A DNA stretch of 64,000 nt from Elsinoe ampelina (GCA_010093995.1 ML992512.1:343736-407735); one strand, 5' to 3'. Positions 27,769 to 55,180 are shown, counted from the stretch's first letter. Numbers and translations: made by a program. Notes: generated by a model from the sequence alone, not told the origin.

Positions 27769-28739
27769 ATGGCAGCCACCAGCGACAAAGCTCGTGCGAA
27801 GCTATACGCAAGGTATGTTCGGCTTCCAGCAGCTGTGTGTGATTCAAGGGCTGCACACTTCACATCAAACCTTCCAACGAACCACGGCTAATACACTATA
27901 GCTTCGCCAACAGTCCGAAGCTTTCCGATGTCACATTCCATTACGGCAACACAACCTTCTTCGGCCACAAGATCATCCTCGCCACCGGCTCCAACTACTT
28001 CATGAAACTCTTCACCCAGAACCCAGTACGTCTCCTTCTCCCTCCCGTCGGTACCCTATGCCTCTCCCCTACTCTTTCTCCTTCGTTTCCCGTCGAAATC
28101 CTCACTAACCACCCCCCCTCCAGAACCGCACAACCTTCCCCCTCCCCCCCTCCCCCTCCAACCCCACCACCACCTCCTCCACCCTCACCACAACCCTCAC
28201 CTACCTCTACGACCGCGACACCCTCTCCCTCCCCCTCACCCCCCCACCTCTCCCCCACAACCCACATCCGCACCCTCGTCTCCCTGCTCCGCTGCTCCGA
28301 GACCCTCTCCATCCCGAAACTGCAATCCGACGCACTCTCCAAAATCGCAAAACTCCTCGCCGACTTCCTGGCTCCGCATCGGCCTTTCGACCGTCATGGG
28401 GTGGGGGAGATTCTTGCTTCGCTGGCGGGTTTGTCGGGGGGGAGTATGAAGAAGGGGGTGAAGGGGGTTGTGGAGGCTATGGGGGCGAGGTGGTGGGCGG
28501 TGCTGAACGTGAAGGAGGTGGGGAAGGTGTTGAGGGTGCATGAGGCGTTGAGGGGGGTGGTGGGGGAGAGGTGTAAGAGGGAGAGAAGCAGGGTGGAGAG
28601 GGAGGGGAGGGAGGTGTGGGGGTGTCTGGGGCAGGAGGGGTGTGGGTGGTTTGTGGAGGTTGAGGAGGGGAGGGTGGAGGGGTGGAGGTGTGAGAGCTGT
28701 GGTGGGGGGATGGGGAGCGGGTATGAGGGGCTGAGGTAG
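27769..28739 (+). CDS. BTB/POZ plus Zn-ribbon protein, copy 1 (apparent +1 frameshift in the C7 run at 28239-28245)
   Basis: Introns 27813-27901 and 28026-28123. FANSPKLSDVTFHYGNTTFFGHKIILATGSNYF...TLTYLYD then continues in another frame to GCLGQEGC...RCESC. Confidence 0.7.
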
Positions 28740-29179
28740 GGAGAAGAGGAGGTGATGATAGGTGAAGGTAGGTGATGGCAGGAGATGGTAGGAGATCGTG
28801 GGGGACGGTAGAAGGGACTGGGTCGTGGTGGTCTGGTAAGATGCAATCATGGGCGGCAGCAATGGAGAGATGGGACAGGAGAGGGAGACAGTCAAGCCGA
28901 GATGCAGATATAGTGAATGATCGCTTTGATGTGGTATGCAGGATGCTGTAGCTCCGGAGAAGGTTTGTTGTCTCAAATTGGCTCTTGCATGCTTGCCGTT
29001 TGCATGTTTCTTGTTGGTCCGATGTGAAACAGCAACAAGCAGAGCGTCGAAGCACGTGATGGGTCGTCTCCTGTATATAAAACTTTTTCCTGGACGAAGA
29101 CCTCTTTCACCACCCGCCACTATAGCTTTCACACTACTTTGCGACAGATTATTGTAGACAACGGAAGTCCACTTCCAGC

Positions 29180-30018
29180 ATGGCCGATCAAGCAGAGTCA
29201 CGATCAACTTCTGGATCTAGTGTTACCGTAGGGACCAGCCCTCGCGACTCGTAAGTATTTGTGGTAGTTATCGTACTCATTGGCTCCAAGCTAACGTGTG
29301 TAGATGCTCCGATTCTCCATGCAATCACACTGTCACGATCCGCTTCGGCGACAACACCTTCATTGGCAACAGGGACCGCCTCATCAAGTTATCGGACTAC
29401 TTCAAAGCCATGCTAGGTGGGAACTTCGCCGAAGCGCAGACTAAAGAGATCCAGCTTCACGATGACGATCCAAAGTACCTGCGCAGAATGCTGCAATCGT
29501 CCGAACGAGATGTCACGTTTTGGATCAAGATGGACGATGCCAAACAGATGACGCGCACCCACGAACTGTACAAGGTGGCGGACAAGTACCAATTCACAGA
29601 TCTGCAGCAACAACTCATCCGGACTACAATAAGTCGATTCGGCCACGGCGAAGAATGGAACCACGATCAGATCAAAGACGCAGTGATGTTCCTGCGTAAA
29701 TTGCCCATCCGTGTTCTGGAGCCGCACTATCACAGATTCATCACTACACTCGAGGCGGGCAGATTCTTGCTCTCGGTGGTGTACACAGATTTCTTCGAGC
29801 GGTTTCTCGAAGACCACCCCAAAATAACTGTTCACCTCCTTCGAAACATGCTGTGGAGGGAGAGTCTTGACAGCGAGCATCTGATATGCAACAATTGCGG
29901 TTTTGGTTTCACCAGCGAGGAGCTTGATGACGCTTGGGAGCGGTGTCCACAGTGTGGCGAGTCTGATGATATCAATTCCCCATCGACCGGGGACTTTGGG
30001 CTTGAGATATTTTTTTGA
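29180..30018 (+). CDS. BTB/POZ plus Zn-ribbon protein, copy 2
   Basis: Intron 29251-29303; SDYFKAMLGGNFAEAQTKEIQLHDDDP, VADKYQ, C-terminal CNNC...CPQC. Confidence 0.88.
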
Positions 30019-30455
30019 GTCCTTCATCTATGTCGCATTTCGAGGGGAAATTCCAATCCTAGACTACCACACACGTCGTCATGAGCAGTGGCCTGAATGG
30101 CTCCGGTGTTGTTCTGGCGTATGCTGCGTCATGATTGGACGGCTTCGACACACGTGAGTATTGGGCTTGCAACCATACTTTCACGTTGAAGCGATTTTCG
30201 TGAGAGTGAGGTTGATAGTCCGGGCTGGCTTGAGGATCATTCACTTTGCTACTGGACCGGGAGGGCCAGGGTTCCATGGACGAGGTCGAATGGTGGGGAC
30301 GGCGTGACCACCTAGGACAAGATTGACTCGTTGCGAACATTCTATCATGGATTTTGAAAGCTGGGGCAGGTAGTCTAGATTGCATCTACTACCAGCAACT
30401 CGCTGTGACTACTCGCCGTCACTACATGGGAGAAATCCCCAACCTTCCCAGGCCA

Positions 30456-31303
30456 TCACTCCCACTCCTTGAATTCGACCTTTTTGGCGCACACAGAACA
30501 GAAATGAATCGTGCCCCAACCCTTGATCTGATATTGGGGTGTCCAAACATAATCACAAACTGAACACTGTCCACAACCGTTGAACAGCTTCCTGTTCTGC
30601 CAGATCAGATAAGTCACCTTGACCGCAAGCTGAGGATGGGCTTCCATCAGGTTGTCGAACTTGGGTAGGCGGAAGATAGACAGAAAGTACTTGTCGCCCA
30701 AGTGCTTGCACACGACATCGTAGTACGGCGCCAGTATGCCAGGATCAATTGTCTGTAGCGCGTCGATGGTGGCGTTGACCTTGGTTTTGCTCCAACCCTT
30801 GGATAGGTTCATGGCGATGCCGTTGATGATGGACTCCTTGAGGGCGTGCACCTGGTACTTATCCGCGACGGTGAGAAGCTTCAGTGCTCTGGCTCTGTGA
30901 TTTTGGTCGTCGATTTCCAGCTCGTCGGTCACGCCGTCATGGTAGATATACAGAAGCATCGTCTCCAGGCTGTCGGCATCATCCTCGTGAAGTTCGATCT
31001 CTTTCTGATTCTTGTCCTAATCGATCAGACTCAAGATTAACATACTCAGATCAGGACATGTTTACCTGGAATGCGCTCTTGAACATGGTGTCAAAGTAAT
31101 CTGACTTTGCAGCAAGCATCAAGCGATGAGCATGAAACTTGCGACCACTGAAGTGTAAAGTGATATCGGAGAAGGAAACCTCGTTCGCGAATCTGTGTTG
31201 TCAGTCTAAGAATACACGCAACTAGGACACATGCATACCGCGCGAACTGCCCCTGTGGTTTGATAGCTTTCGCCTCCTCAGGTTCTGGTTGACTGTCCGC
31301 CAT
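30456..31303 (-). CDS. BTB/POZ plus Zn-ribbon protein, copy 3
   Basis: Introns 31193-31238 and 31017-31065; FSDITLHFSGRKFHAHRLMLAAKSDYF, IELHEDD, VADKYQV, C-terminal CSVC...CSVC. Confidence 0.9.
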
Positions 31304-31578
31304 CGTGAGCTATGGCTTGAGAGACGAGGTGACAGGAAGTGTAAAAAGTGAATTCTCTTCGTGGATGCGATCCAAGTGAAAATTGAGATTGTGGTGAACT
31401 CACCGCGGTCAAACATGTGAATCACGTGAAAAGCGGGTCACGTCATGCTCCTCCGTCCTACATTGTCCAGATGCCGCATCGACTTTCCTACACGTTACTT
31501 CAAGACTTCACATCAACACATGAGCGAGCTTGGTAGTTCATCGCAGCGTCCGAGCCACTGCCCATATAGCGTCATCAA

Positions 31579-32429
31579 ATGGCACTTCGCCGTTCATCAT
31601 CAAGCATCAATGTCTACGCCCGGTCAGAATAATCAAAACATGACGAAATGTATGTCCGACTGACCAGCTCAGCTTCGCCGATAATGAAGAACTATCAGAC
31701 ATCACTATCTGCTACGGCGGCAAAGAGTTTCGCGCCCACAAATTCGTCCTGATCGCTCACTCCGACTACTTCAAAGCATTTCTCACCGGACACTTCCAGG
31801 AAGCTGGAAAGAGCAAAGTCCGCCTGGAGTCAATCAACAACGATGAAGGGCACACTTGGACTGGTCAAGAGGAGGAATTTCTGACCTTGATGCTCAGGTC
31901 GCTCTACGACAAAGACATGCTCGATCAGCACATTGACGCCATCTTCACTCCGGTCGATAAAGCTGAGTCCGCCGTCGGATTATATCTTGTCGCAGACATG
32001 TACCAAGTCAGCGTCTTGAAGCTAGCCATGGTAGAGAAGCTTGTGGACATTGTTACCATCATGCCCTGGGACAAGAATGGAATCGACAAAGTGGTGCACG
32101 AATTCTCGACTGTTGCAGCCTCAGATCTACGCCCCTTCAACGATAAGCTTGTCAAAGAGATGAGGAGTGGTATGTTTCTGGTCGTCATAGGTCTTGAGAG
32201 CTTCCGTGCACTGTTGAAGCGGGACGCAGATCTGGCAATCATGTGTATGGAGAGGGTCGTCAAGAATGCCCACATGTTCGGGACCGGGTATGATCATCCG
32301 AGGATGTGCGCGATATGTGGATACGTTATTACGTGCAGGGAGAATGGTTTCAACGCTGCCAAGTGCAACGGCTGCGGAAAATCTAATTCGTATGGGAGAT
32401 GGACTTACGAACTTCCGTCGAGCATCTGA
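31579..32429 (+). CDS. BTB/POZ plus Zn-ribbon protein, copy 4
   Basis: Intron 31623-31672; LSDITICYGGKEFRAHKFVLIAHSDYFKAF, VADMYQV, C-terminal CAIC...CNGC. Confidence 0.88.
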
Positions 32430-32747
32430 CGACAGAACGGCACTTTAACCATGATGGGCAGTCTGTGGCCTGAAGGCTAGACCAGACGTGTCAGAACAGC
32501 TGAACGGTGGCCAGTCCTCATTAGTCCTTCAGGGATGTCCTTCCAAATAGCAGTGAAGCCAGTTCCGGGCTCTGAAAGTCGTCCAATTCCTTGCAGCGAG
32601 GCGACCATTTAGTATGTTTAGTAGTGTGCATGAGCGGATGTCTGGCATTCCACTGCTTTAGCATTGAGCTAGCGTTGTCGTCAGTCCCACAGTGACTGTT
32701 CCTTCGCCATCAACCACTTTCGGACTCTGCATTTGTGTCTCTCAGTC

Positions 32748-33351
32748 TCAACCAAAATTTTCTTCTACACATCCATTCTCAGTATCTCCATAAGCCCGCA
32801 AGTCGTCCTCGACGGCCGTGGCTTCCATGATACGGACGTCGTCGAATCGCATCATGTCCCCATCAGAAGGATGAACAAGCCCAGTGATTTCTCGACGACA
32901 AGAGGGCATGAATTGGAATGGGAAATACCAAATCCAGTTGAGACAAACAGGATGAAGCTCTTCGATAGTCGAGAACTTTGCCAGCTCGCGATGCTCGGTC
33001 CGAGTATTCCACGTGCAAGCCGATATCGCTTTATGCGGGCGGCGTACGGTACCAATTACTTGAGATAGGCGTTGCCCCCGGAGAGCATGTCGACGCCCAG
33101 ATTGATCCAAACGTAGCGTCCAGTGAGCGAGAAGTCCGCGAACTCTTGCTGGTAGAGACCAAGGCTGCGGGCCTCGCTACATGCCTAAGTCGTTGCTGGG
33201 ATCGAAGTCGCCGAGTATAGATCGTCGTACTTGGGAATGCAAGATACGCTTGATGGAGGTCATACCTCGACATGCGAGGCTCTAATGTCAAGTGCCATAT
33301 CCCAGCACGGACCTCGAAGGGAAGTCAGGGAAAGAGACGGAAGGAGGCCAT
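32748..33351 (-). pseudogene. 2EXR-domain protein pseudogene
   Basis: Reads MASFRLFP*LPFEVRAGIWHLTLEPR, then *ACSEARSLGLYQQEF...RYVWINLGVDML...K*, the F-x-x-F-P-x-LP-x-E-x-R-x-x-IW and C-x-EAR signature of fungal 2EXR proteins. Stops at 33327-33325, 33187-33185 and 33058-33056, plus frameshifts. Confidence 0.75.
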
Positions 33352-33829
33352 GGAGCTGATCGACTCGATGACACCGAAAGGAGCCCTCTTGCCGACCTAC
33401 GATTGTATCATTCCTAGGCTCTGAGCTTCTGAATGTCGTCAATTTGAGGACGGGCACGCGATTGCGGCTCTACGCTGGTCACGTGAAGGGAACCTCGGCA
33501 AAGTTGCGCGGGATTTACTTCTCACAATGTACCTACTATGCTCGCCATAATTGCATCAACCATCCGAATCACAACGTTCAGCAGACTTGGGACTGACAGG
33601 GAGATTGCATGAATTCGCCACGCTACAACGAGTCGACCAACAACACCATGAAGGGACGAGACGTTTCAAACCACGACAGCGCGGCTTGCTGCTTTCTTGC
33701 TATCCAACAAATCCAGAGCCTTGATTGAGCCCAAGCCATGGCCATGACACTCATTCGTCCACGGAACACCAGAGGTAGAGCGACTGAATCTCATTATTTG
33801 GTCCAGATCGTCGTCGATGTCACATCGTC

Positions 33830-34714
33830 TTAATTGTCTACTCCAACGACAACGACAGTCTCGACAACCCTACCATAAGACCCGCAATGCTGCCGACACT
33901 TTGGCAATGGGCGGACTGGTGTATCGCACTCGAACTTGCCGTTACTATAGACTGCATGTAGGCAATTTTGACACATGTACCTGAAGTGGAATTTCGGCTG
34001 CTTCGGTGCAGTCAAGAATTCATGGAGCAGCTTCCTTGACAGGACTCCGTGCGCATCGAGCATCGAATGGAAAGATGTCAGCAGCATATGGCTATCAATG
34101 TTGCCCCTCAGTACCTGAGCCAAGCCATCCGCACGTGCTTCGAGTAGATGAGGGGGGAGCGGCACCAAAGCGGCGAAGACGGTATCGGGTGAATCGTTCT
34201 TCTCGAGAATCTGGATCAAGCGGTTCGACACGAGGTCGCTCAGACCCGCCACTTGGTATTTGTCGGCGACGACAATAAGATTGATCAGAAGGGTGGCACT
34301 GTCCTCCTCCAGCTTCTCCAGCGGGATAGCGAGTCCGCCGGTGTACATGTACTCAAGCATGGCATAGACAGCGTCAACGTCGTCCTCTTCGAGCTTGAGC
34401 TCGGATGCGTTACTGTCCTGGTAAATGTCAGTCTATCTCCTACCACCTGTTGACCACCTCACCGGTGGATGATGATGAAGTGGATGATGGACCCACCTTG
34501 AATTCGCCGCAGAACAACGTCTTGAAGTACATCGACTGACTGAGAAGCAGGATTTTGTGCGCGCGGATCCTTTTGTCCCCGAAGACGATTGTGATATCCG
34601 ACATGATCTCGCTATTGAAGAACCTGGAAGAGTGTTAGTCTTCCCTCGTGAGTCTCCGCGATGTCAGACACACTGGCTATCAACCTGACGGGGGGTCTTG
34701 CTTGCGATACTCAT
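33830..34714 (-). CDS. BTB/POZ plus Zn-ribbon protein, copy 5
   Basis: Introns 34624-34673 and 34418-34496; MSDITIVFGDKRIRAHKILLLSQSMYF, LEEDD, MLEYMYT, VADKYQV, C-terminal CQNC...CRQHC. Confidence 0.9.
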
Positions 34715-35038
34715 GCTGACTTTGGATGATGAGTGACTCGGCTGCTTTCGGTTGTGTCGCTTCCTTGCTGTGGTAGGATGTGGTGAAAAGAAAGGACGAA
34801 AGAAAGTGAAAACAACTGCAAACATGGGCTTTGTGATTTCTCTCATCAGGATCACATTTCAGGTAGATCACATTGTGATTCGGGGATCGAGAGAAATTTC
34901 TTCACCCCCCTTTTGTCTCACCTGCCTCACTTCACAGATCATACCTGGAGATCTGACATACCGTTGTTGTAGGTCTTCTATCGTAAAGAGGACTGTAGGG
35001 GTCTCCGTCGGACTAGCCTGAAGGAGCAAAACTTCAAC

Positions 35039-35873
35039 ATGGCGGAAGGCGAGGCCATCCCGAAGTAAGGGTGCCGGAGTCAATCTGGAACATCACAGGC
35101 TGACATGCCACAGATACTTCAAAAACCAGAGCTTCTCCGACGTCACCATCATCCTTCAAGGTCGCAAAATCCCAGCCCACCGTGTTGTGCTTGCTGCCGA
35201 ATCTTCTTTCTTCGACAAGCTCTTCACCGGTTCTTTCAAAGTGAGAAGCCATGTACATACGGATGCTGATGCCACTAACGCCACATAGGATAGCTCTGCT
35301 TCAGAGCTGTCCCTCGAGCACGATGATCCCGACGCAATGGAAGAATTGATCCGCTTCATGTACACTCAGAACAGCGACGGTATCGACACGCACTTCGGAT
35401 CCTTCGCCATCGACAAGCTGTGCAAGCTTATCACTGTCGCCGATAAATACGGTGTTGCACGCCTCAGGAACGTCGCATTGCGGGAGCTCCTCAACATCTT
35501 GCGCGGACGCTACACTCGAGCAGGCACAAGGGACGTCCTCACGGCTCTGGCTGAATTACCGACACACATGCTCGAACCCAGCTTCGACCAAATGCTTCTG
35601 GTATTCCGGGAAGAGGCACCGCAGCTTGTCCGTCACGCCACCTTCGACGCCCTACTGGACGCTCACCCGAAGCTAGAACGCTACATCGTGTATTGCGGGC
35701 TCAGTAGCGTGAGTACACAGCGGACCGCATATGTGTGCCTGAGCTGCGACTACTGCTTCCACACCAACCAGTGGGATGTACAGCTGGACCAGTTGGCTTG
35801 TGCGTCATGCCAGTTGGTCGGCCTCTGCGAACATAGTGGCCCTTTGGACATGTCGAAGCTGGAGGACGACTGA
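35039..35873 (+). CDS. BTB/POZ plus Zn-ribbon protein, copy 6
   Basis: Two introns, the first at 35065-35113; FSDVTIILQGRKIPAHRVVLAAESSFF, LEHDDP, VADKYGV, C-terminal CLSC...CASC. Confidence 0.9.
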
Positions 35874-36105
35874 GGTCACAGGATGGTAAAGAGGCCTGGC
35901 ATGACAGCCATATCTCGGCGCAGGACAACGTATGGTTGAGGCCGTCTGAGGGTCTGCGGATTTCTTACACATCAGATAGAAGGGTTCGAAGTCTCTATCG
36001 CAAGTAAGTCGAATTCGATACAGCTATCCGAGTCTATTCTGGTACTCGTCCACTCATCGTAGATTCCCCGTCAAACTTCCCATTAACCAACCCTTTTCAT
36101 GATCA

Positions 36106-37042
36106 CTACTCAAACCAAAACGGCCTATGAACAGCCGGGACAGGCGCAGTCTCTGGCTCCTCCCAGTCCTCCACCATCTCCTTCTGACTCAGCACCCTTG
36201 TCTTGCTTCCACACTCAATACACTCCCCATCATCCGGCCCAATCCACACCACAGGACACAGAGTGCAACCCAGACGAACCGCAGTATCATGCTCATGCCC
36301 CTTCTTGATCAGCTGATAAAACAACATCTTCCCCAGCTCAGGCTTCTCATCAAGCAGCCTACTGAACGAGGGCTTCTTAGTGTAAAGCAGCAGTCTCGGC
36401 TGCATAGCCCAGAAGATCTGCGCGATGTACCTCTCCAAGACGTGGTCCGGCAACCTGCCAAGAGCCTCAAACACGGAGGCTGGAGGATCTTCGTCTTGGC
36501 AGACGAGGAGCGTGTAGTTGATGACCTGGAGGCAATGCTGGACCACAGAGGATAGACCGTATTTGTCGGCTGTGTGGACGAGGTCGACAATGCCGTCGAT
36601 GTCGTGTTGGTTGTCCCACCAGGTGCCATCGAATGGTTGGGCGTCGTCGTAGACGTGCTTCAGCATACGGAATACTGCGTCCGGGGAGTCGTCTTTGAGC
36701 TCGATCTCGGTGCTGTGGAATTTCTAGGGCGGAGTCAGTGCTGGATACTGGTGATTTGGTCATCCTGTGGTAGCTTGATAATACTATCATGGTAGCCCGA
36801 CGACGACTTAGTCGAGCCGGTGACGAGATGGTGGTGGTACGGACCTTGGAAGAGCCCGAGAGCATGGTCTTGAAGTATGGCGATGCTTTCTCTAGGACCT
36901 CACGATGGACGTGAATCTTGCGGTCGCGTGAAACGATCACCAGGATCGCCGACGAGGCATCATTAAAGGACCTGTCGAACGTCAATATCCATGCGGCTAA
37001 AGGGTGCATTTGCACTGACTTCTTTGGCGGCGACATGCTCAT
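36106..37042 (-). CDS. BTB/POZ plus Zn-ribbon protein, copy 7
   Basis: Introns 36972-37019 and 36724-36844; IHVHREVLEKASPYFKTML, IELKDDSP, TADKYGL, C-terminal CTLC...CIEC. Confidence 0.87.
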
Positions 37043-37243
37043 GATGAAAGACGTGGTAGCGAAAGAGATATGTGGAAGGCAAGCAGAGAGATTTGGAGAA
37101 GAGAAATGTTTGAAGAGTCTTGATCACGCTGTGGTTGTAAAACTTCGGCAAACATGTGACAAATGTATCAATGCATGTGCTTTCTTTGATCAGCCAGCAC
37201 CTACTAGGCAATGCTTTACGATATCCGTCATCGACGAAGTGGC

Positions 37244-38536
37244 TCAGTGACCCATGATATTCCTCGGTACGTACAGCTCCTCCAGGTATTTCTCCTCCTC
37301 ATCTGTCAAGACCTTGCCCTTGACATCACAGTTCTCGTCCATGCGGTCGACCGAGCTGAAGCCGATGATAGCACTTGCAACCCGCTTATTGAGCCAGGCA
37401 AGGGCGACATGCGACATCTTCCAATCCCTCTTCTTTGCAATCTCCTCAACCCTGTCGATGATCTGTCGATCCACATCGGCGGTACCGAGGCCGGCAAGCA
37501 GGCTGAATGGGTTCTTGGTATTCTCTTCTGAGCGAGGGGTGGTGCCGTGAAGGGCATTCGGGCGGACGAGGTAGCCACAGGCGAAGGGCGACCACTATGA
37601 GCTATTAGCACATTGCCGGACGTACGAGAGTGAAGGCGACCATACCGCCAACAATCCAACACCGGTCTCTTTGCAGAATTTGTTCATCTCGCGCTCCTCC
37701 TCGCGGTAGAGCAGAGAGTAGTGGTTCTGCATCGAGACAAACTTGGTCCAACCATTTTTCTCCGCCCTGGTCAGATTAGCGAAGAGTTCCGTCGGATCGA
37801 AGTAAGGTCTCTGCGTACACAAACTGCATGGTGATGAATTGGTAGGCGTCCATGGAGCTTGCGCCGATGTACCGAGCCTTCCCGGACTTGACCACATCGT
37901 GGAGAGCCTCCATAGTCTCCTCGATGGGAGTGTTTGGGTCGAAGCGGTGGATCTGAAGGACATCGATATAGTCCGTTTGCAGACGCTTCAGGCAGGCGTC
38001 GACTGCGGTGAAGATAGCACTTCGAGAAAGACCTACAGAACTCGTCAATGGTACAGAGTAGTAGTCGTCCCGGTCACCTCACCTCCCCTGTTGACGAAGT
38101 CTTTGCTCTCCGCAATCTTCTCTCCGTACATCATTGTAGATGTGCTCGGTGTGTCTCCCACGTATGACCAGATCTTTGTCAAGAGCACCACCTTCTCGCG
38201 CGGGATCTCATACTTCTTGATAGCTCTTCCGATGATCTCCTCCGACAGCCCGTTGCTGTAGACATTTGCGGTATCCCAAGTGTTGAGACCCTTGTCGTAT
38301 GCTGCCTTGAGGAGAGGTAGCGCCTGGGATCTGGTCAGAATGAGTGATCAATCCAAACATGACCTTCCTACCTCTTCTTCTGGAGTTGCCCACGGAAGCC
38401 ATCCTTTATCACCGAAGCCTAGAGTCCCCAAGATTGGAAAGGAAACCTTCAAGCCTGATTTACCAACTCGCTTGTATTCTGGCTTCGTTGCCGCAATAGA
38501 AGCGAAGATAGGGTCATTGGCGAAGTTGAACGCCAT
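37244..38536 (-). CDS. Aldo-keto reductase (aryl-alcohol dehydrogenase-like), multi-exon
   Basis: Motifs [67 protein letters not shown] and VALAW. Confidence 0.92.
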
Positions 38537-39054
38537 CTTGTTTCGTGAGTACTTCGCCGGATTGGACGGCTCGAAGGTAATGGAGTGAAATTGGAATTCC
38601 CTAGAGAGGCATATATCATGGCACATATGAGCTGACCTACCGTCTCGTCTTCGGTGACCGACGCATAGCCATCAGTCGGACAGTCACCGACCAGCGCGCG
38701 GCTGACGACTGTCTCTTGGGTGGATGTTGACAATATGGAGGGATCGTGCATAAAGGGAGCTCGAATCCCTGATGAAGTGCATGCAGATCACACACGGCGG
38801 AACGGCGGATGCACCCGGCGAACCTCTCATCACTGGCCGCCTTGATTGCTTCTCATCATTATTGTCATTCCTTACCCTTTCAAGCACATCTAAGGACGAT
38901 GAACTGTTTCGGGCCATGCTTTAGCACCGGCAACCCAGCGTGGAGGATGCTTGTTTCATTTCAGGTTATGGACTGCCGCCCAATGACGATGGCCCTGTCG
39001 CACACGTCTTGCATTTCGTGAAATGTGCGACTGTGTTTCCCTCACATTCCTGCA

Positions 39055-39420
39055 TCACCTCCCCTTCATTAGCGCATCGTTGTAGATGACATTCAGAAGC
39101 CACTCGAAGATGGATTTGTTCTGCTCTTCGATCGTAATCTTTGTCCGAGCCCCTCCCTGACTGTCTGAACCGGTAGTTTCCTACCTTGAAACCGGCAGAA
39201 ACCATGACTTTGAAATAGTCCGACTTGCCCGCCAGAATCGCCTTGTGTGCTTTGAAGGTCTTCGTACCGAAAACAAGCTCGACATCCGAGAACAGCGCAT
39301 TGTCGGCATAGCTGCTTGTAGTGAGCACGCCATCCCGTAACTATGGTGGGCAAACATACATCTCATATTGCCACTCAGCTGAGCTGCTTAAATCAGTCGG
39401 TATAATCTCTGATGCAAGGT
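39055..39420 (-). pseudogene. Truncated BTB/POZ pseudogene, copy 8
   Basis: YADNALFSDVELVFGTKTFKAHKAILAGKSDYFKVM...GFK, then ITIEEQNKSIFEWLLNVIYNDALMKGR*. No in-frame ATG is visible in exon 1, intron 2 is eroded to under 30 nt, and the ADKY helix and C-terminus are missing. Confidence 0.75.
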
Positions 39421-39992
39421 AATTGTGGGGGGGTGCGATGGTGATAATTCAACAATAGTAAAGTCTTCTGCAGAGGCAGTTCTTATCGACTGAGGTAAAG
39501 GAAGTGTCCGGTCTGTCGACTAGTGGAAGTGATGCACTGCTACAGTATCGTGCCTGGGGTGCTGGCGGTTGTTTCTCACTGAGCTGCAGATAAGTCAGTC
39601 CAGCAGAGTGCGAAGGCAGAGCATATTCTTAAGCGAACGTCGAAGCTCCAGGTCCATCGGACGACTGTTGTGCGCCTGCAAGAAGACATGTGGAAGCACA
39701 TGTGAAAGTAAAGCACATGAGGGGACTCGAAGAAGATTTGGACAAACAGTCTTTATTCACCTTCCCCCGCAATCAACTTCCAACCTTCTACCAGAAGGGT
39801 ATCCGCACCTGTCACGACACAACAAAAGGCCAAACGAGTGGACGCGTCGCACGACGCTACGCCGCCGCACCTCATGCCACCACATTCGCATGAGCGCAGA
39901 CGAGACGAATCTGGTGTATGAAACTATTACATGAAGCTGACCGACCACCCCTCACCTCCTCCCTCATCCTCCCCCCTTTCACCACCACCCAT

Positions 39993-41186
39993 CTACTCGT
40001 AATCCCCAGTAGGTCTCGGCGACCCCGGCACAACACCAGTAGGACGCACAGGCCTTCCCGGACGGCCAGGTCGAGGACGACCAGGACGACCAGTAGCCAG
40101 CGCAACACCAGCAACCGACTCCTCCCCGTCAGCAGCACCAGTTGGAGTCGGGCGACCTGGCCTCGGGAAGCCACCAGTTGGGAAAGGGAAGCCAGGGAAG
40201 CTACCTGTCGGACGAGGACGAGACGGACGACCAGTAGGACGGGCAGCGCCTTCGACGATCTCTACTTCCTCGTCGAGCTCGAAGGTACGCTTGGTCAGGT
40301 CCTCGGATGGCTCCTCGCCGGCGTCAGGGGTGCCAGTGGGACGAGGGAAACCGCCTGTTGGACGGGGAAAGCCGGAGAAGCCGCCTGTGGGACGAGGACG
40401 GCGGGTAGGACGGCCAGGGCGAGGACGGGAGGGACGACCAGTAGGACGGGCAGCGCCCTCGACGACCTCTTCTTCCTCGTCGAGCTCGAAGGTGCGCTTG
40501 GTCAGGTCCTCGGATGGCTCCTCGCCGGCGTCAGGGGTGCCAGTGGGACGAGGGAAACCGCCTGTTGGACGGGGAAAGCCGGAGAAGCCGCCTGTAGGAC
40601 GGGGGCGGCGGGTAGGACGACCTGGACGGGGTCCAGAGGGGCGGCCGGTGGGACGAGCGGCGCCGAGGACGGGCTCTTCTTCTTCGCTGGCGCCGGCCAC
40701 GGTTGAGTCGCCGGCGTCTGGGGCCTCGGGCTCCTCAGGGACGGCGCCGGTTGGGCGAGGACGGGGGAAGCTACCGGTCGGACGGGGGCGGCGGGTTGGG
40801 CGGCCGGGACGACCAGTGGGGCGGGCGACGCCCTCGAAGTCTGCCTCATCGGCGGGAGCGCGCTCGGTCAGTCCGCTGCCGAGATCACCCAGGCTGGGGA
40901 AGCCGGAGAGACCGGTGGGGACTGGGAGACTTGGACGACCGGAGCGGGTTGGGCGAGGACGACGGGTGGGGCGGGGAAAGGGAGCGCCGCCAGTGGCACC
41001 GGGACGACCGGAGCGGAACTGGTCGATGAGAGACTTGATGCGGTCCGCACTGTCGCTATCACCGCTGCCGGCACCGGGGAGCTCAGGAGCAGTAGTAGGG
41101 GCGGGAGCGAGACCCTCGTCCTGGGCGGCCGGCGTGGCCAGGGCAAAGGTCGCCAGGGAAAGGGTAGCGAGAGAGATAAACTTCAT
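39993..41186 (-). CDS. Secreted Arg/Pro/Thr/Gly-rich repeat protein with Kex2-type KR sites
   Basis: Signal peptide MKFISLATLSLATFALA; RPTG/RPTRRPRPT blocks alternate with acidic spacers; EDLTKRTFELDEE occurs twice. Confidence 0.85.
   Translation of the reverse strand: MKFISLATLSLATFALATPAAQDEGLAPAPTTAPELPGAGSGDSDSADRIKSLIDQFRSGRPGATGGAPFPRPTRRPRPTRSGRPSLPVPTGLSGFPSLGDLGSGLTERAPADEADFEGVARPTGRPGRPTRRPRPTGSFPRPRPTGAVPEEPEAPDAGDSTVAGASEEEEPVLGAARPTGRPSGPRPGRPTRRPRPTGGFSGFPRPTGGFPRPTGTPDAGEEPSEDLTKRTFELDEEEEVVEGAARPTGRPSRPRPGRPTRRPRPTGGFSGFPRPTGGFPRPTGTPDAGEEPSEDLTKRTFELDEEVEIVEGAARPTGRPSRPRPTGSFPGFPFPTGGFPRPGRPTPTGAADGEESVAGVALATGRPGRPRPGRPGRPVRPTGVVPGSPRPTGDYE
40230..40640. repeat. Near-identical 207-bp (69-codon) tandem duplication inside the repeat protein
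   Basis: GTCAGGTCCTCGGATGGCTCCTCGCCGGCG starts at both 40294 and 40501; boundaries are approximate. Confidence 0.85.
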
Positions 41187-42436
41187 CTTGCCAGAAGATG
41201 CAAAAGTCTAACTGAAAAAGAGGGTATAGGGTTCGGAAAAGACTGGAAGGGAGGGCTGAGGAAGAAACTGAGAGCACTGCTGAGACAACGAAAGGGAGTG
41301 CTGAGAGATACTTGCCTATATACCTGCAAAGGCATGGCGCTTGGAGATGCAACTGATACGCGATGTGGAGACTGGTGGATAAGCACGTATTTCCACAGAA
41401 GCAGGGGGAAATGGGAAAAGTCCGACAGACGGGATGGGATACTGAGCATGGGTCCCTGTGGCAGGTAGAGTAGTGCGTGGCAGGATTGTGTCGGGACGCA
41501 GAATAGCGTTCGACCATGTGTGATGGTACCTGTCGTGGTCGTGGAAAATGTGTTGGGACGAGAGTCGAGAAGGCGATGCATTGACCTGTCGCAAAAGCTT
41601 GCTGGGATCAAGCCAGAGCACCTCAGGGTCGTGGGCATCGGGGCGGCAAAACAACGGTGCTGATGCAGTCATGCAGCAAACATGGCCAGAAGGTCGGGAG
41701 GCTGCAGGGGGAGAAAAGTGGAAGAGAAAAGATGAAACGTGAAGAGACGCGTAGTCACGTTTCATTTTTGTGGGGAGTGGCCCGCCTGTACCTGGATCCG
41801 TGGCGCCACAGTAGCATTGACTTTTCGGCCTTTCCTTTCAACGACTCATGTCAGCAGTCAGCTTTGCTGTTCCAAGGATCAGACTGTGTGATGATCATGC
41901 ACGTCGTTGCTTATGGTCGTGCTAATGCAAGGTACAGGCATCTCGATGGCGTCAGTTGTGGTCGTTATGGAGTCAACAAAATCAGCATCTCGACATAGTA
42001 GACTTGGTCGATGATCGATCACTTCACAGCAGAGGCGATGTCGGTCGTTCTATTTGATCAGATACCTTCTGTCTATGGCTGTCACGTTCACAGCGTCTTC
42101 AGTGCCTCATGTCGTGCGCCGAACCAAGCGCTCGCTTTCAGACGATATCGAGCTCAAACCCGTCTGTGCTCCAGCTTATGACTGGGTAAATAGTCGATAG
42201 TGATAACGCCTCTTCCACCTCCAGAGTCTACAGAGGACATCCGTGATTCCCAACCGACCAAGCCACAAACAGGATGCTTGGACCCTCGGTCCCGGGGGCG
42301 TTTTTAAGCTTATATCCTTGACCACTGTCCGTTTCATCCCAACCACGTCCGGTCGCGGACTCGTCCACGTCGCTGCCTCCGATTCGGACGACGAGGTGGT
42401 GAATTGTGATCGCTGATCAAGAGCTCAGCAAGCTGC

Positions 42437-48990: not shown

Positions 48991-49296
48991 GTTGCTTGCC
49001 TGGTGTGCTGCCTCACTTGACTATCAGTCTGCGCAAAGCAAGGCTGAATGGTCCTTGTTCGCGGGGAATGCTGGGAGGTTGCAAAAAAAAGTTGATGGGT
49101 GAACACGGAATCTCAGGAACGGATCTCTTGATGAAAGCCCAGTCCTCGCTCGAAGCTCGGCGACGTTCGGATCTTCACAAGCTCGAGCTTTACCGAGTCA
49201 GAACCACGACATCGAGTCTTAGTCATCGGCGGGTACTTTGCCTCCCTCAGCTCATCATTCGTTCTGCTCAGTGTGACTACACAGCATCGTGCCATC

Positions 49297-51860
49297 ATGG
49301 CACCGAAACGCAAGGGAGTCGGTCTTGGTGGTGAACGAGCAGCGAAGAGGGCTGCTTCTGGAGTCAGCACACCCATTAGTTTGGGCAGCGACAGCGACGA
49401 CGACTACTCGGATGCTGGCGACGGGGATGATGTTCCCGCGCATCGTCTTGACAGTCAGTCACCCTGATGGGCTAGATAGAGTCGCGCTGACAGTAGCTAG
49501 ATGTCGTCAAGAAATTCCAGGCGTCTTCGTACATGAAGTCGAACAAGTCTAAGAAAGAGCGAGACTCGGCTAGCCATTTGTTTGGCTCGACCCGCGACCT
49601 CTCAGCGCTGGAGCTGAAGAACGACCACTCTGTACGACCACTATGGCTGGATCCAGACAAGGGACGTGTCGTGCTCGAGACCTTTTCGCCGTCCTTCAAG
49701 CAGGCGCAGAACTTCTTGATCAACATCGCAGAACCGCAGTCGAGGACAACGAATGTGCACGAGTACACCATTACGGCACATAGCTTGTTCGCAGCAGTAT
49801 CGGTAGGTCTAACTACGGACGACATCATACGACAGCTGGAGACATTCTCGAAAACGAGGCTGCCGGAAGGGTTGAAAGAGTTCATCACGGCGTCTACACA
49901 GTCGTTCGGCAAGGTGCGATTGGTCTTGAAACATAACAAGTACTTCATCGAAAGCTCGGATGCTTCAGTACTGCAAATGCTGCTGCAGGACCCGGTGATC
50001 GGACCATGCAGAATAGAAGATGCGGAGGAGATACACGCGGAAGCGGCGCCGCAGATGGGTGGACTAGTCATTCCGGGAACAAGAGATGCTGCTGGTGTGA
50101 AACAGGCACAGCAAGGCCAGCAGCAACAGGCGGCCCGGAAGGAGGATGAGGAGTCAGACGACGATGAGGAGGAGGGAGCAAAAAGGCCGGAACAGGACAT
50201 GACAGCGGTCTTGCGAGAAGAGGACGATGATGATGAGGTCGACCAAGTCCATACGTTCCAGATCGATGGAGAGAAGATTCAGGTGGTGCAAGAACAATGC
50301 AATGTCAAGCTGGAGCTACCACTTACAGAAGAGTACGATTTCCGGAACGACGAAGTCAACGCTACACTGGATATCGATTTGAAGCCTTTTGCGTCCATTC
50401 GATACTACCAGGAACAAGCTCTGTCCAAGATGTTTGGCAACGGTCGTGCAAGGTCCGGTATTATCGTCCTACCTTGTGGTGCCGGGAAGACTCTGGTCGG
50501 TATCACGGCCGCATGTACGGTCAAGAAGTCAGCGATTGTTCTCTGCACCTCGGCCATGAGTGTTATCCAATGGCGAAACGAATTCCTCAAGTGGTCGAAC
50601 ATATCTCCCGACGACATTGCCATCTTCACATCCGGCGAGAAGGAACGACTAAATCAGCGGGCTGGTATAATCATCTGTACATATTCCATGGTCACTCAGA
50701 ACACAAGGCGCGCGCACGACTCGCAACAGGTCATGGACTTCATCACGTCTCGAGAATGGGGCCTGATGGTGTTAGACGAGGTGCACGTCGTACCTGCTGA
50801 GATGTTCAGGCGGGTCACGTCGCGAATCAAGACACACTCAAAGCTTGGGCTAACAGCCACGCTACTTCGTGAGGACGACAAGATCAAAGATCTCAACTTC
50901 CTCATTGGTCCAAAGCTGTACGAAGCTAATTGGCTGCAACTATCAGAGGAAGGCCACATCGCCCGTGTGCAGTGCGCGGAAGTGTGGTGTCCTATGACCA
51001 CGGAATTCTATACCGAATACCTTAAGCCCACAATCAGCAACAACAAACGCTCTCTCCTCTCAACCATGAACCCTCGCAAGTTCCAAGCTTGCCAATTCCT
51101 CATCGACTTCCACGAGAAGCGTGGCGACAAAGTCATCGTCTTCTCCGATAACGTCTACGCCCTCAAATCCTACGCCACAAAACTCCAAAAGCCCTGCATT
51201 TACGGCGAGACACCCCAGCGCGAGCGCGAAATGGTCCTCGCCAACTTCCAACAAAACGAGTCCGTCTCCACCGTCCTCCTCAGCAAGATCGGCGACACCT
51301 CCCTTGACCTCCCCGAAGCCACCTGTCTGATCCAAATCTCTTCCCACTACGGTTCTCGCCGTCAAGAAGCACAACGCCTCGGCCGCATCCTCCGAGCCAA
51401 ACGCCGAAACGACGAAGGCTTCAACGCCTTCTTCTACTCCCTCGTCAGCAAGGACACCAACGAAATGTACTACTCCAGCAAACGCCAAGCCTTCCTCGTC
51501 GACCAAGGCTACGCTTTCAAAGTCATCACCCACCTCAACGGCATCGACCGCATGCCTGGGCTATGCTACACCTCGCAGCAAGAACGCATGGAAGTGCTCC
51601 AGGATGTTCTGCTGCAGGGTGAGGAGGCTGGTGGCGTGGAGGATATCAAGGATGATTTGTTCAGTCGGGCGGGCGGGAAGAAGAAGGGTGGGGTGAGGAG
51701 GATGGCGGGGGCGTTGAGTGAGTTCAGTGGTGGGAATGATATGGCGTATATGGAGAGGAGTAAGGGGGTGAATAAGACGCTGAAGGCCCCGGGGAGTAAG
51801 TTCTTCAAGGATGTGAAGAGGACGAATGAGAGGAGGAAGAAGGCGGCCGGTGGTGGGTGA
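49297..51860 (+). CDS. SSL2: TFIIH helicase/translocase XPB
   Basis: Motifs SGIIVLPCGAGKTLVG, LDEVHVVPA, LGLTATLLRED and SRRQEAQRLGRILRAK; intron 49451-49500. Confidence 0.97.
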
Positions 51861-52111
51861 TTGGGGTCAAGGTGAGGGGATTGGGTAGTGGTAATGAAGT
51901 TATGGCTTGGTGAGGTTCACCTTCCGTCAACACCGTGAGTTGGCGTGATTTACAGCCGCCCCCAGCATGGCTTGGGAAACTTCCTTCGACTCGAACATCA
52001 CTTTCGACCAATTTCACATGCATTTTCATTTCTTTTTGCACGGGTCACCGCACCACTCACGGACAGCGGACAGAAATCCTTTGCACCGGATTTTCACAGC
52101 GCTCCAAAGGA

Positions 52112-52959
52112 ATGGCTACAAATCAAGAAGGTTCGGGTGAAGGGGGCTCCGCTGAGTTGGGTACACAGGAAACAGGGAAAACTGAACAGAGTGAGCATAC
52201 CGAGAAGAATTGGCTGGGATGGGCTGGTGATCTGGCAGCGTTCGCCTTCCACCCATCACCGCGAGTGATCCTTACTGATCGGCCCGCAGGTACTCTAAAG
52301 ATGCTACCTTCTCCGACGTCACCATATGTTTTGGTGACCGGCAGTTCTATGCCCACAAAGTCATACTGGCCTCTCGCTCCGAATACTTCAAGAGTATGTT
52401 CACAAATGCGTTCAAAGAATCCAATCAGCGCACAATCACACTCGAAGATGACGATCCTGAAGCTCTCGAGATCATGCTGAACTGGATGTACAATGTAGAC
52501 GCCTTACCAAAGCTTCGGCAAGGAGAAGACGGCAACAGCGAAGCCATCCAAGAGCTCTATATAGTCGCCGACAAGTACCGGTGTCCTGGTCTGGCTGGAG
52601 CGGCGATACGAGAAATTCTCAAGACGTTTTCTTCGAAATGGGACAAAGACGATGTCGCTGGTGTCCTGGTGTTTATCACAAAGATAGATCCCGCAGCCCT
52701 TAAGACCTATCACGACGACATTGTCAAGAGCATCGAAGGAGAATTCCTGATCAGTATCTTCAACAGGGAAGAATATGACGATCTGCTCGAACAGCACCCC
52801 GGACTTGTCAAACCCATGAACCTAGCGATCTACAATGCGAGACACGAGTTCGGCCGTGGCAGATTCTGCCACGATTGCAGCCATCATTTTAAAGTCGGCA
52901 ACGATGCCAGCAGCTCGGGAAATTGTCCGCTGTGCGATCGTCGTGCGACCAATTGGTAA
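52112..52959 (+). CDS. BTB/POZ plus Zn-ribbon protein, copy 9 (exon 1 donor uncertain)
   Basis: FSDVTICFGDRQFYAHKVILASRSEYFKSMFTNAFKES, LEDDDPEALEIMLNWMY, VADKY, C-terminal CHDC...CPLC. Confidence 0.88.
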
Positions 52960-53358
52960 TCAGGATCTACACCATGGTTAGCAGTGGTATAGACGGGTAG
53001 CATGGGTCTATAGCATGAGACAGGTATGTCAAATCTCGCTGTCTTAGAAGTTTAGTGAAGCTGTAGGCAAGACCCATCAAAGCCCGGAAGAACATCATGG
53101 ACGGCATATGCGGGTTTCTTCAATCAAGCTTCTTCTTGCAGCAAAAGCCATTCAGCCATGTGCTATCACATGTGATTTATCCCCATCCCAACCCACATGT
53201 CACATGCTTGGGCCTCTGACCTTTTATAGGTGGATGGTCCATCTCGTCTCTTTAATTTCATCTTCACCTCATCTTCATCTTTCCCAGCATTGATTTTGCA
53301 TCTGCCATTGCACTTATCCTCATATCCTGTGTCGTGCACGAGCGATCAACCAGCAGCC

Positions 53359-54111
53359 ATGAACCGATCCGACAGCAATGACTTTACCCGGTGAGTGAAA
53401 CGGTGGCGCAGTGGCGTACTCACACTGACAAGTGACAGCAACTTCGACAACAGCATCCTCCCGACTGTGACAATTGTCGGCCGGGGAAGGACGTTCAAAG
53501 CACACAAAGCCGTCCTCGCAGACAACGCAGCCATGTTTCGCAACGTCGGTGACTCAAGGATCAACAGTTCCGCCTTCCCGGACGACGTGACAGAAGCCCT
53601 CTTGCTCTTCTTTTACTCTCGGGCGGACATCGAGACCATCGTCCATGACCAGACAGACGCATGGGTTTGCGAACTCTACAGGAGTGCAGCTGGTTGCATG
53701 GCAGACAAGATGTCCACTGCCCTCCTCGAACACCTAGTGCACCGTTTCCACACTGGTAAATGGTTGGCCACTGACTTCTCGACTCTTTTAACATGCTTCC
53801 GGGTCATCGATGTCGATAGCCTGCGTCCTCATTACGAAGAGATGGCGCGATTTGTCGTCCAACGGGAGCACTTGCCCGTCAAGAACATGGAGGAATTCGA
53901 CGACTTGATTGAGGCGCATCCTCGTTTCGCCGTCGCGATCCTGCGCGCAGAGAGGCAGGAGAAGGAGGCGAGAGCGAGGTATAATGCGCTGGAGTGCAGC
54001 GAGTGCCATTTTGTGGCGTCCAGGGGAGATCACAGGAAGTGTTGGGCATTAGATGTTCCGCCGAAGATCTGTCCGGCTTGTCAGGAAAAGAACAAGCTAC
54101 AGACATGGTAG
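53359..54111 (+). CDS. BTB/POZ plus Zn-ribbon protein, copy 10 (divergent)
   Basis: Intron 53391-53438; VTIVGRGRTFKAHKAVLA, LLLFFY, LIEAHP, C-terminal CSEC...CPAC. Confidence 0.85.
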
Positions 54112-54338
54112 GGATGGAAACTCCACGGATGGTCTTGTCAGCTGGATAGGAATGATGAAAGTGAGACTTGAGTGAGCCTGGAGTGCTGCATCCGTTCATC
54201 ATCATCAGATCCGAGCACTTTCAAGATTGCATGAAGTGGCCTTACTTTGACCTCACTTGATCTGCCGGTCTCCTCCATATATATCTCTATTCTTCCCCCT
54301 TACCTGTTTTCCGTTCTTCCCAACACACACCGTCTATC

Positions 54339-55180
54339 ATGCCTGGTTTACCCTCAGGCGCATGGCTTGATACCCTTCACAGGTAAGTATGAAGCCTTGG
54401 GGCTGGCACTGAGTCCCTGACAACGACCAGCTTCTACAACAACACCACCTTCTCCGACGTCACCATCGCATATGGAAAGCAGCGATTCAGCGCCCACAAG
54501 GTCGTCCTCGCCTCCAACTCTCAGGAGCTCAACGATCTTCTGGTCCAAGTAAGCCCTCCCTCACCAAAAACCACCAACCTCAACTGACCGCACAGCTCAC
54601 ACCGGGACATGACCTCAGACTTCAGCTCCACGGCTGCAACGAAAGCGCCCTGACCACCATGCTCAACTTCTTCTACAACGACCACGAGTTCTACAACGAC
54701 TACACCAACGACAGTGACTGTGATGTCCCCGAGCTCATTGAGTTCCACACCCTTGCCGTCAAGTACAGAGCCGACAAGTTCGCCGCCGCCGTCATCGCCG
54801 TGATGGCGACCGTGTTCGTGCAAGGCGGCTGGATCGCCACCGATCGCGAAGCGCTTCACGAGTATCTCTGCGACATTCCTGTGGAGCAGCTCGGGCCGCA
54901 CTACGGGGAGATGGCGACCTTGGTGGCAGACGACTATTGGTTGTCTGTCCTCAACATGCCGAGCTTGCATGAGATGCTGAAGAAGCATCCTGAGCTGGCA
55001 CTGGCGATGATGGTGGGCATGAAGGACTTGGAGAATGGAAGGGCACAATTTGATGCTAGGGTGTGTGAGCACTGTGGAGGTGTGTATCCGGAGGGGTTGC
55101 AGTCTTTCAAGCAACCCGTTGATGAGCCGACCTACGTGTGTGGGATCTGTGGGGATGAAGGGAGCATGGTGAAGTGGTAG
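54339..55180 (+). CDS. BTB/POZ plus Zn-ribbon protein, copy 11
   Basis: Introns 54383-54430 and 54548-54595; FSDVTIAYGKQRFSAHKVVLASNS, MLNFFY, LAVKY, C-terminal CEHC...CGIC. Confidence 0.88.

Follow-up and report, generated by a model that had tools for sequence, protein, structure and literature searches.

A tandem array of diverged MATH-less, SPOP-type BTB-BACK-zinc ribbon genes in Elsinoe ampelina, predicted to encode small Cul3 adaptors

We analyzed a 64,000-nucleotide window of the Elsinoe ampelina genome (GCA_010093995.1 ML992512.1:343736-407735), in which positions 27769 to 55180 hold eleven loci of one BTB protein family. By profile and structural model, this family is a SPOP-type BTB-BACK core that lacks MATH and carries an appended four-cysteine (C4) zinc ribbon, and its members are most likely small Cul3 adaptors, as predicted from the same evidence. 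We read the locus as an old tandem expansion of a BTB-BACK-ribbon family found throughout Pezizomycotina, with predicted Cul3 adaptors in which ribbon and BACK would present the targets; the probability of this reading as a whole we judge to be a little above even. What is new is the BTB-BACK-zinc ribbon architecture, while the SPOP-type Cul3 adaptor is a kind of protein already known.

Gene models were built from stop-to-stop open reading frames (ORFs) by three-frame reading and GT..AG introns that join the frames; the first ATG lies at 27769 and the last stop at 55180. A tblastn search of the window, for which 21 database proteins and 10 spliced models from the window made up a query set of 31 family proteins, found exactly 11 family loci and none elsewhere, arranged in a block of eight genes (27769-39340) and a block of three (52112-55180), with seven copies on the plus strand and four on the minus strand. 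They are called c1 to c11 here in order of position. The BTB domain (PF00651) scored above the Pfam gathering threshold at all 11 loci (24.4-79.5 bits, cut-off 20.5), the match being limited to the N-terminal third of the domain in c1 and c8. Nine loci look intact, with complete open frames, canonical introns, all four cysteines, and BTB above the threshold; c1 is open but degenerate, and c8 is a truncated remnant. The proteins have a length of about 235-295 amino acids (aa) and consist of a short N-terminus, BTB, helices, and the C-terminal zinc ribbon. The motifs SDV..F.AHK, L..DD, and ADKY are visible in the alignment consensus, and the 'HP' of L..HP.L is present in six of ten copies (c2, c3, c6, c9, c10, and c11).

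The copies have diverged strongly outside these motifs: the closest paralogue of each of the nine well-aligned copies is only 27-34% identical, and the ten alignable copies show 17-27% identity to c2, the first row of the alignment. The original prediction for this DNA had described 11 genes with a shared BTB-helices-CxxC..CxxC architecture, in two arrays of mixed orientation and deeply diverged, and all of this was confirmed, including the limits of the array and the existence of one tandemly arrayed BTB family; the single decayed copy that it mentioned became two aberrant ones, c8 and c1. Four models agree letter for letter with E. ampelina proteins already deposited (c2 with P0011, c11 with P0012, c6 with P0013, and c4 with P0014), and these four and two further ones have NCBI names in the series KAF2220514-KAF2220528, where the existing annotation reads 'BTB/POZ protein' or 'hypothetical protein'.

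The likeness to SPOP extends beyond the BTB domain. A family profile of 87 members matched SPOP residues 192-359, from BTB through BACK, at an E value of 4.6e-21, and KBTBD4 and KBTBD2 at 1.8e-19 and 7.8e-16, respectively; in the alignment of the profile to SPOP, 'L..HP.L' falls on 'SHPHL' in BACK. For structure prediction we chose c9, which has the best BTB match of all copies (Pfam 79.5 bits) and is the only copy modelled whole. The AlphaFold2 model, made with an 87-row alignment, had a predicted local distance difference test score (pLDDT) of 91.7 and a predicted template modelling score of 0.87, and it comprised a BTB core, seven more helices, and a small beta-structure in which the four cysteines are held. 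The top Foldseek matches in the PDB were the SPOP BTB (E 1.4e-7), KBTBD4, KBTBD2, A55-Cul3, and KLHL3-Cul3. In VIA-align, c9 matched KBTBD2 with a Z score of 14.9 over 166 aa (model residues 4-188), the BTB-BACK of poxvirus A55 with Z 13.8 over 168 aa, and full-length SPOP with Z 13.7 over 162 aa (model residues 4-184 on SPOP 200-363), these BTB-BACK matches (Z 13.7-14.9) all lying within model residues 2-190. The BTB core of c9 superposed on those of KLHL26, BCL6, KEAP1, and SPOP with Z 12.8-15.2 and root-mean-square deviations of 1.6-2.9 over 94-101 residues.

Since both the profile-to-SPOP alignment and the structural superposition run through the helices, the 'helical segment', which had been listed as a separate element, is by profile and c9 model a 3-box followed by a SPOP/BPM-type BACK. 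Thus, the profile hidden Markov models and the structure prediction that had been proposed as checks did recognize BTB (PF00651) and 3-box/BACK, and of the Cul3-adaptor reading the part that stood is that the family has the fold and the sequence of Cul3 substrate adaptors. No window copy matched the Pfam family BACK_BPM_SPOP at E<0.1, and no Pfam family other than BTB reached its threshold in any copy. There was no Pfam match to MATH in any scanned copy, and only about 10-30 residues precede BTB; none to Kelch, the proteins ending about 35-70 residues past BACK; and none to the C2H2 zinc finger, a single CxxC-x(n)-CxxC being present instead. A co-fold of the c9 homodimer, run without controls, scored 0.00 and is not evidence either way.

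The architecture is not special to this locus. The region common to nine copies was made into a search profile, A2, and run over 1.84 billion library representatives; in this library each 50% cluster is reduced to a single representative, and genes that lack annotation do not show up. The search gave 1338 proteins at E<=1e-3, 71 at E<=1e-10, and 13 at E<=1e-30. Among the best 150 representatives, 79 have a length of at most 310 aa and a C-terminal CxxC-x(6-40)-CxxC, a motif that occurred in 0 of 150 shuffled controls. The named members belong to Dothideomycetes (Elsinoe, Saccharata, Septoria, Pseudocercospora, and Cladosporium), Sordariomycetes (Fusarium oxysporum), and Eurotiomycetes (Penicilliopsis), so that the family spans three classes of Pezizomycotina; all of them bear generic names ('BTB domain-containing protein' or 'hypothetical'). 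The longer profile hits that were scanned in Pfam were mostly MATH-BTB-BACK proteins (SPOP/BPM-type) or multi-BTB models. Three entries hold two family units each, P0017 of E. fawcettii (337 aa) and P0032 and P0036 of Cladosporium (604 aa), and these may be true tandem fusions or merged models of adjacent paralogues. In literature full texts, supplements aside, we found no paper that describes this architecture or locus. One study of Elsinoe reports BTB as a Pfam family enriched near known effectors and used it as a scoring criterion (10.1101/2019.12.19.882142); besides this effector-scoring study, no other mention of BTB in Elsinoe was found in the literature.

The zinc ribbon comprises about 35 residues and directly follows the 'HPxL' helix of BACK, and the four cysteines of CxxC-x(n)-CxxC are invariant in all ten aligned copies. 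In the c9 model it contains short strands (residues 186-188 and 195-197) and C-terminal bridges. The C-terminal 111 residues modelled alone gave a pLDDT of 86.1; the best fold match had Z 6.2 to generic helical domains, and the SPOP C-terminal domain (4hs2) matched with Z 4.6 over 64 aa, but the rows of this fold search span residues 1-78 only, so that the ribbon is barely covered. A search of the protein atlas with the C-terminal part led to unnamed clusters of Ascomycota, at 0.90 and 0.89, which have no Pfam family. The mean identity between paralogues was 27% in BTB, 19% in the helices, and 20% in the ribbon; the ribbon had been predicted to be the variable end, and these values do not agree with that. 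Family members differ in the spacer between the two knuckles, which is 8 to 29 residues long; such variation fits the role of a putative recognition loop but does not show one. A separate observation concerns tryptophan, which lies at most 16 residues past the last CxxC in 49 of the 87 family rows and is often the final residue (TNW, QTW, and VKW); a C-terminal tryptophan was noted in c3, c4, c7, c9, c10, c11, and relatives. Since the final residues of c9 form a high-confidence beta-bridge in the model, this residue probably packs onto the ribbon.

The possibility exists that the proteins are nucleic-acid or chromatin regulators in the manner of BTB-zinc-finger factors, the ribbon binding DNA or RNA and the BTB domain recruiting partners. 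Such factors likewise have a BTB followed by a C-terminal zinc-binding module, the ribbon has a weak, sub-threshold Pfam likeness to rubredoxin-like and zinc-ribbon models, and among the library hits, one that aligns with the ribbon part of the profile consists of DUF4379 treble-clef fingers. However, the BTB domain is of the SPOP/KLHL adaptor type, with 3-box and BACK, and the copies have one small ribbon rather than an array and no C2H2 matches. We regard a role of this kind as distinctly improbable.

A function as an adaptor that docks on Cul3 is the most likely one because a phi-x-(D/E) loop is found together with the 3-box/BACK. According to published structural work, phi-X-(D/E) in the alpha3-beta4 loop is a key contributor to the binding between SPOP and Cul3 and is conserved in A55 (PMC6484134). 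The motif was present in six of ten copies (c2, F-A-E; c3, F-Q-D; c4, F-Q-E; c5 and c6, F-K-D; c9, F-K-E), and of the 46 family rows whose sequence covers this loop, 42 retain it. Other BTB-BACK proteins have their Kelch or PHR substrate modules at the place taken here by the zinc ribbon. In the mechanism that we propose, the BTB/3-box face would use the phi-x-(D/E) loop to dock on the N-terminal domain of fungal Cul3, and the ribbon, with its variable inter-knuckle loop, and the variable surface of BACK would present a target to the ligase; each paralogue would thereby send a different protein to ubiquitylation. The copies devoid of the motif (c1, c7, c10, and c11) may act without Cul3 or as modulators.

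Several points weigh against this adaptor reading. The phi-x-(D/E) motif is absent in the four copies just mentioned, out of ten. A ribbon of about 35 residues is very small for a substrate receptor, and since it is no more variable than the helices, it is not singled out as the specificity element; the Pfam zinc-ribbon models reach only 13-17 bits on it, below their cut-offs. The 10-30 N-terminal residues, as read from the alignment, leave at best a stub of the domain-swapped helix, which according to PMC6484134 is a conserved feature of dimerization in BTB-Kelch adaptors. Finally, the evidence for expression is thin and consists of a few low-depth contigs.

The leading rival reading is that the proteins act as modulators or decoys. 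According to this explanation, the proteins are MATH-less BTB-BACK proteins that work independently of Cul3 or co-assemble with each other or with a MATH-BTB adaptor, and they might cap, tune, or poison adaptor oligomers, or hold Cul3 without a substrate. Exactly the two modules of SPOP that serve self-association and Cul3 docking are retained, no recognizable substrate domain is present, as only BTB reaches the Pfam threshold, and MATH-BTB-BACK proteins are also among the hits of the family profile; the loss of phi-x-(D/E) in four copies fits this reading as well. On the other hand, the conservation of the ribbon across the whole family and three fungal classes argues for a function of its own, and the motif is kept in nearly all covering rows of the family. 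We consider a modulator or decoy role unlikely, although it deserves to be taken seriously, and continue to favor docking on Cul3 and presentation of targets.

The age of the array was examined with a maximum-likelihood tree of 35 rows, to which the window contributed 10 models, other Elsinoe species or unnamed contigs 17 rows, and Paraphoma one fragment, the remaining seven being outgroups; c8 was omitted, and the fused model P0017 was split into two rows. All Elsinoe sequences fell into one clade (support 99/97), inside which the long-branched Paraphoma fragment was also found. Within this clade, subclades joined different species: c5, c6, and c7 grouped with members from E. australis and E. 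batatas (98/90), c10 and c11 with members from E. fawcettii and E. batatas (98/92), and c3 with E. batatas P0010 (100/100). Since cross-species subclades lie within the Elsinoe clade, the duplications predate the splits between the Elsinoe species. The degree of conservation is uneven. Copies c3 and c10 are 95-98% kept between species across all segments, the best E. batatas partner of c5 is 54% identical, and the 90% clusters of c2, c6, and c11 contain no other member. For the ten relatives that were retrieved from E. fawcettii and E. australis, identity to the best-matching window copy is only 30-38%, and the neighboring dienelactone hydrolase is 89% (E. fawcettii) and 76% (E. australis) identical; closer orthologues of the BTB genes may be hidden because the library holds one representative per 50% cluster.

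Runs of accessions and locus tags suggest clustering also in E. australis (TKX26860-26870) and E. fawcettii (D9617_3g021370-021460). The E. batatas relatives of c3, c8, c5, and c10 (P0010, P0019, P0024, and P0015) have the tags KVT40_003652, 003824, 004025, and 004184, respectively, on one 2.5 Mb contig; if these tags are positional, the array is dispersed there over hundreds of genes, and if they are not, they are meaningless in this respect.

At the DNA level, there were no repeats longer than 51 nucleotides (nt) that link the copies, and recent duplication or gene conversion was rejected, as no long DNA repeats connect them. The sole DNA similarity common to several copies is a segment of 51 nt, 61-75% identical, at 35100-35150, 52276-52326, 53425-53475, and 54417-54467. 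It includes the CTGAC branch site and the acceptor at the 3' end of intron 1 as well as the first BTB strand, and because the similarity spans the end of this intron, the position of intron 1 is ancestral. A second intron, 3' of the F-x-(D/E) codons, is found only in c3, c5, c6, c7, c8, and c11, and is absent from c2, c4, c9, and c10. Taken together, it is partly shown that the array is an old, Elsinoe-wide expansion whose members appear to have since diverged strongly and to have been retained unevenly between species. With duplications older than the separation of the Elsinoe species, and with 95-98% conservation of c3 and c10 in E. batatas, it is not a recent burst, and the rapid evolution that had been proposed was not borne out in this sense.

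The original prediction had gone further and suggested a rapidly evolving surveillance repertoire for non-self or stress, in which Cul3 adaptors are directed against proteins of viruses, transposons, or competitors. Two reports do describe BTB adaptors that have expanded in particular lineages (PMC1257465; PMC4091423), and the present family is clustered and strongly diverged, down to 27-34% identity between paralogues. The gap between the E. fawcettii and E. australis relatives (30-38%) and the dienelactone hydrolase (89% and 76%), the contrast between c2, c6, and c11, which have no partner in their 90% clusters, and c3 and c10, which have one, and the occurrence of one remnant and one degenerate copy, which fit a birth-and-death pattern, point in the same direction. 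However, the low identities must be read in light of a library that collapses relatives above 50% identity and may hide closer orthologues; the duplications are old, c3 and c10 differ little from their E. batatas orthologues, and the DNA shows neither recent duplicates nor gene-conversion tracts. Nor is there a link to known fungal non-self genes, as the ORFs of at least 140 aa in the window are of the housekeeping type. We find a surveillance function improbable.

A broader version of the adaptor reading is that an undescribed, Pezizomycotina-wide class of minimal Cul3 receptors exists, in which a zinc ribbon with a hypervariable loop on a SPOP-type BTB-BACK stalk replaces MATH or Kelch, and that the Elsinoe array supplies fast-diverging, lineage-specific degradation specificities, for example toward stress, toxin-related, or foreign proteins. 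We put this forward as a rather doubtful extension, not as the favored reading.

It is also conceivable that most of the array consists of non-functional relics of an ancient expansion. The remnant c8 and the degenerate c1, the very long branches in the tree, and the antisense spliced contig over c5 could be explained in this way, but nine copies have full open frames, canonical introns, the four cysteines, and BTB above the threshold, c3 and c10 are 95-98% conserved between species in all segments, and c6 is spliced as predicted. We consider a relic array highly improbable.

In the first block, c1 (27769..28739, plus strand) is aberrant. It encodes 293 aa as modelled, with a BTB N-terminus, an insert, diverged helices, and CxxC...CxxC. 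The insert of about 80 aa (P31, S13, and T11 of 80) takes the place of the BTB middle; the copy scored 12.5 bits against the family profile, compared with 182-226 bits for the other copies, and its Pfam BTB match (30.2 bits) covers profile positions 7-44 only. It has the longest branch in the tree and a deviant composition. Copy c2 (29180..30018, plus strand; 261 aa) is intact and has two exons with an intron at 29251-29303; it corresponds to P0011, KAF2220514.1, and its BTB scored 31 bits. Copy c3 (30456..31303, minus strand; 250 aa) is intact and has three exons (introns 31193-31238 and 31017-31065). The 250-aa E. ampelina record P0160 (KAF2220515.1) is in the same 90% cluster as E. batatas P0010, to which c3 is 98% identical over 229 aa; its BTB scored 76.2 bits. 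Copy c4 (31579..32429, plus strand; 266 aa) is intact with two exons and an intron at 31623-31672, carries an 11-aa insert after beta4, lacks the HP motif, and scored 50.5 bits.

Copy c5 (33830..34846, minus strand) is intact and has three exons (introns 34624-34673 and 34418-34496); its third and fourth cysteines are spaced CxxxC, its BTB scored 74.9 bits, and the partner at 54% identity is E. batatas P0024. The deposited protein P0167 (283 aa, same start) splices 12 residues, including the first CxxC of the ribbon, out of the last exon (33830-34417), and the uninterrupted reading retains this CxxC. One of the two models is wrong, and the RNA contigs give no cover there. Copy c6 (35039..35873, plus strand; 245 aa) is intact, has three exons with introns at 35065-35113 and 35241-35288, and is identical to P0013 (KAF2220518.1). 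Copy c7 (36106..37042, minus strand) is intact with 253-271 aa and an intron at 36724-36844, the deposited protein P0016 adding intron 1; phi-x-(D/E) is lost (S-K-K), and the BTB scored 54.1 bits. The pseudogene remnant c8 (39067..39340, minus strand) has lost all of the protein beyond the BTB N-terminal exon and a portion of the exon that follows. Against its closest relative, E. batatas P0019, tblastn aligned only residues 18-60 (65% identity) and 65-90 (46%); the frame ends in a stop, and the Pfam BTB match (36 bits) covers profile positions 6-44. A CxxC located 3' of this stop was considered as a surviving ribbon and rejected, as tblastn shows no homology there.

The second block begins with c9 (52112..52959, plus strand; 245 aa), which is intact and has two exons and an intron at 52191-52300; neither an identical protein nor a relative above 50% identity was found for it among the library hits. 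Copy c10 (53359..54111, plus strand; 234 aa) is intact with two exons and an intron at 53391-53438, and its BTB scored 24.4 bits. E. batatas P0015, to which c10 is 95% identical, falls into one 90% cluster with the 234-aa E. ampelina record P0161 (KAF2220527.1). Copy c11 (54339..55180, plus strand; 248 aa) is intact, has three exons (introns 54383-54430 and 54549-54595) and a BTB score of 42.7 bits, and equals P0012 (KAF2220528.1).

Transcript data were taken as Logan contigs from four runs of one study, the RNA nature of which is a guess by the software and not on record. Since contigs of the four runs skip introns of the aldo-keto reductase and Hid1 genes (CT..AC ends), the runs behave as RNA. 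One contig of run X4 skipped the c6 intron at 35241-35288 (GT..AG) exactly, and low-depth contigs touched c3 and c7. There was no contig cover of c1, c2, and c8 in the four runs, which is not evidence of silence. At 34223-34734 on the plus strand, contigs of runs X2 and X3 carry an intron at 34427-34550, the GT..AG ends of which were checked in the sequence; it has a GTCAGT donor and a CTGAC branch site, and X3 has a second skip at 34634-34733. This spliced plus-strand transcript is antisense to the 5' half of c5 and may be a long spliced 5' leader of the divergent c6.

The neighboring ORFs of at least 140 aa are of the housekeeping type and encode an ABC transporter, an aldo-keto reductase, Hid1, a DUF4748 protein, XPB/SSL2, a dienelactone hydrolase, an oxidosqualene cyclase, and TAF6. 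There were no NLR, HET, or transposon-type domains in window ORFs of this length. A secondary-metabolite cluster was rejected on account of the neighbors (Hid1, XPB/SSL2, TAF6, oxidosqualene cyclase, SOD, S-adenosylmethionine decarboxylase, and others of this sort), and secreted effectors were rejected because the N-termini are hydrophilic by eye, no signal-peptide predictor having been applied. Between the two blocks, the minus strand contains an ORF of 404 codons (39996-41207) that is rich in Pro, Arg, Gly, and Thr, has a hydrophobic N-terminus and no Pfam family, and includes a 207-nt tandem repeat at 40210-40623 with 94% identity. In each of the four RNA-like runs, no part of the stretch had contigs of greater word depth than this ORF, and at 39950-39999 these contigs differ from the window by numerous substitutions and small indels.

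To our knowledge, almost nothing is known about the targets of Cul3 ligases in filamentous fungi. If the Elsinoe proteins are true receptors, a BTB-BACK protein of about 250 residues with a 35-residue ribbon would rank with the smallest known substrate receptors. Although ascomycetes, plant pathogens among them, commonly have members of the family, annotation goes no further than "BTB domain-containing" or "hypothetical". With eleven natural variants of one scaffold within 27 kb, the Elsinoe array would be a convenient system for studying what the ribbon binds and whether modulators arise when the Cul3-contact motif is lost. If the proteins prove to be ordinary, the main gain is their annotation as SPOP-like, MATH-less BTB-BACK-zinc-ribbon proteins. 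As to the original prediction as a whole, the array is real and was correctly described, whereas the interpretation is only partly supported; a ribbon more variable than the helices, an architecture peculiar to this locus, and a recent burst are not supported.

Among known systems, the BTB-ZF/POK factors have an N-terminal BTB and a C-terminal zinc element as the Elsinoe family does, and the BTB domains of BCL6 and Miz1 matched with Z 14.0-14.1; in contrast, the Elsinoe copies have a single C4 ribbon and not C2H2 arrays, and BTB-ZF proteins are devoid of 3-box and BACK. With KLHL3, KLHL11, KBTBD2, KBTBD4, and A55, the family has the BTB-BACK fold in common, as well as a variable C-terminal module that follows BACK at the position of the propeller. 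Unlike the BTB-BACK-Kelch proteins, the Elsinoe copies have no Kelch repeats, their BACK is of the short SPOP type, and the swapped helix is a stub at most. The MATH-BTB genes of C. elegans and grasses are likewise tandem, lineage-specific expansions of Cul3 adaptors with divergent paralogues (PMC1257465; PMC4091423), but in Elsinoe the putative recognition module is a different one, the duplications are old, and some orthologues are highly conserved. The closest comparison is with SPOP and the plant BPM proteins. The Elsinoe copies differ from these in the lack of MATH, in the C4 ribbon after BACK, and in a length of only about 250 aa, and their binding to Cul3 is a prediction; in BTB, 3-box, and BACK, which are homologous over the full length, in the phi-x-(D/E) loop, and in the 'HPxL' helix, which corresponds to SHPHL of the SPOP BACK, they are alike, and both groups display lineage-specific, clustered expansions.

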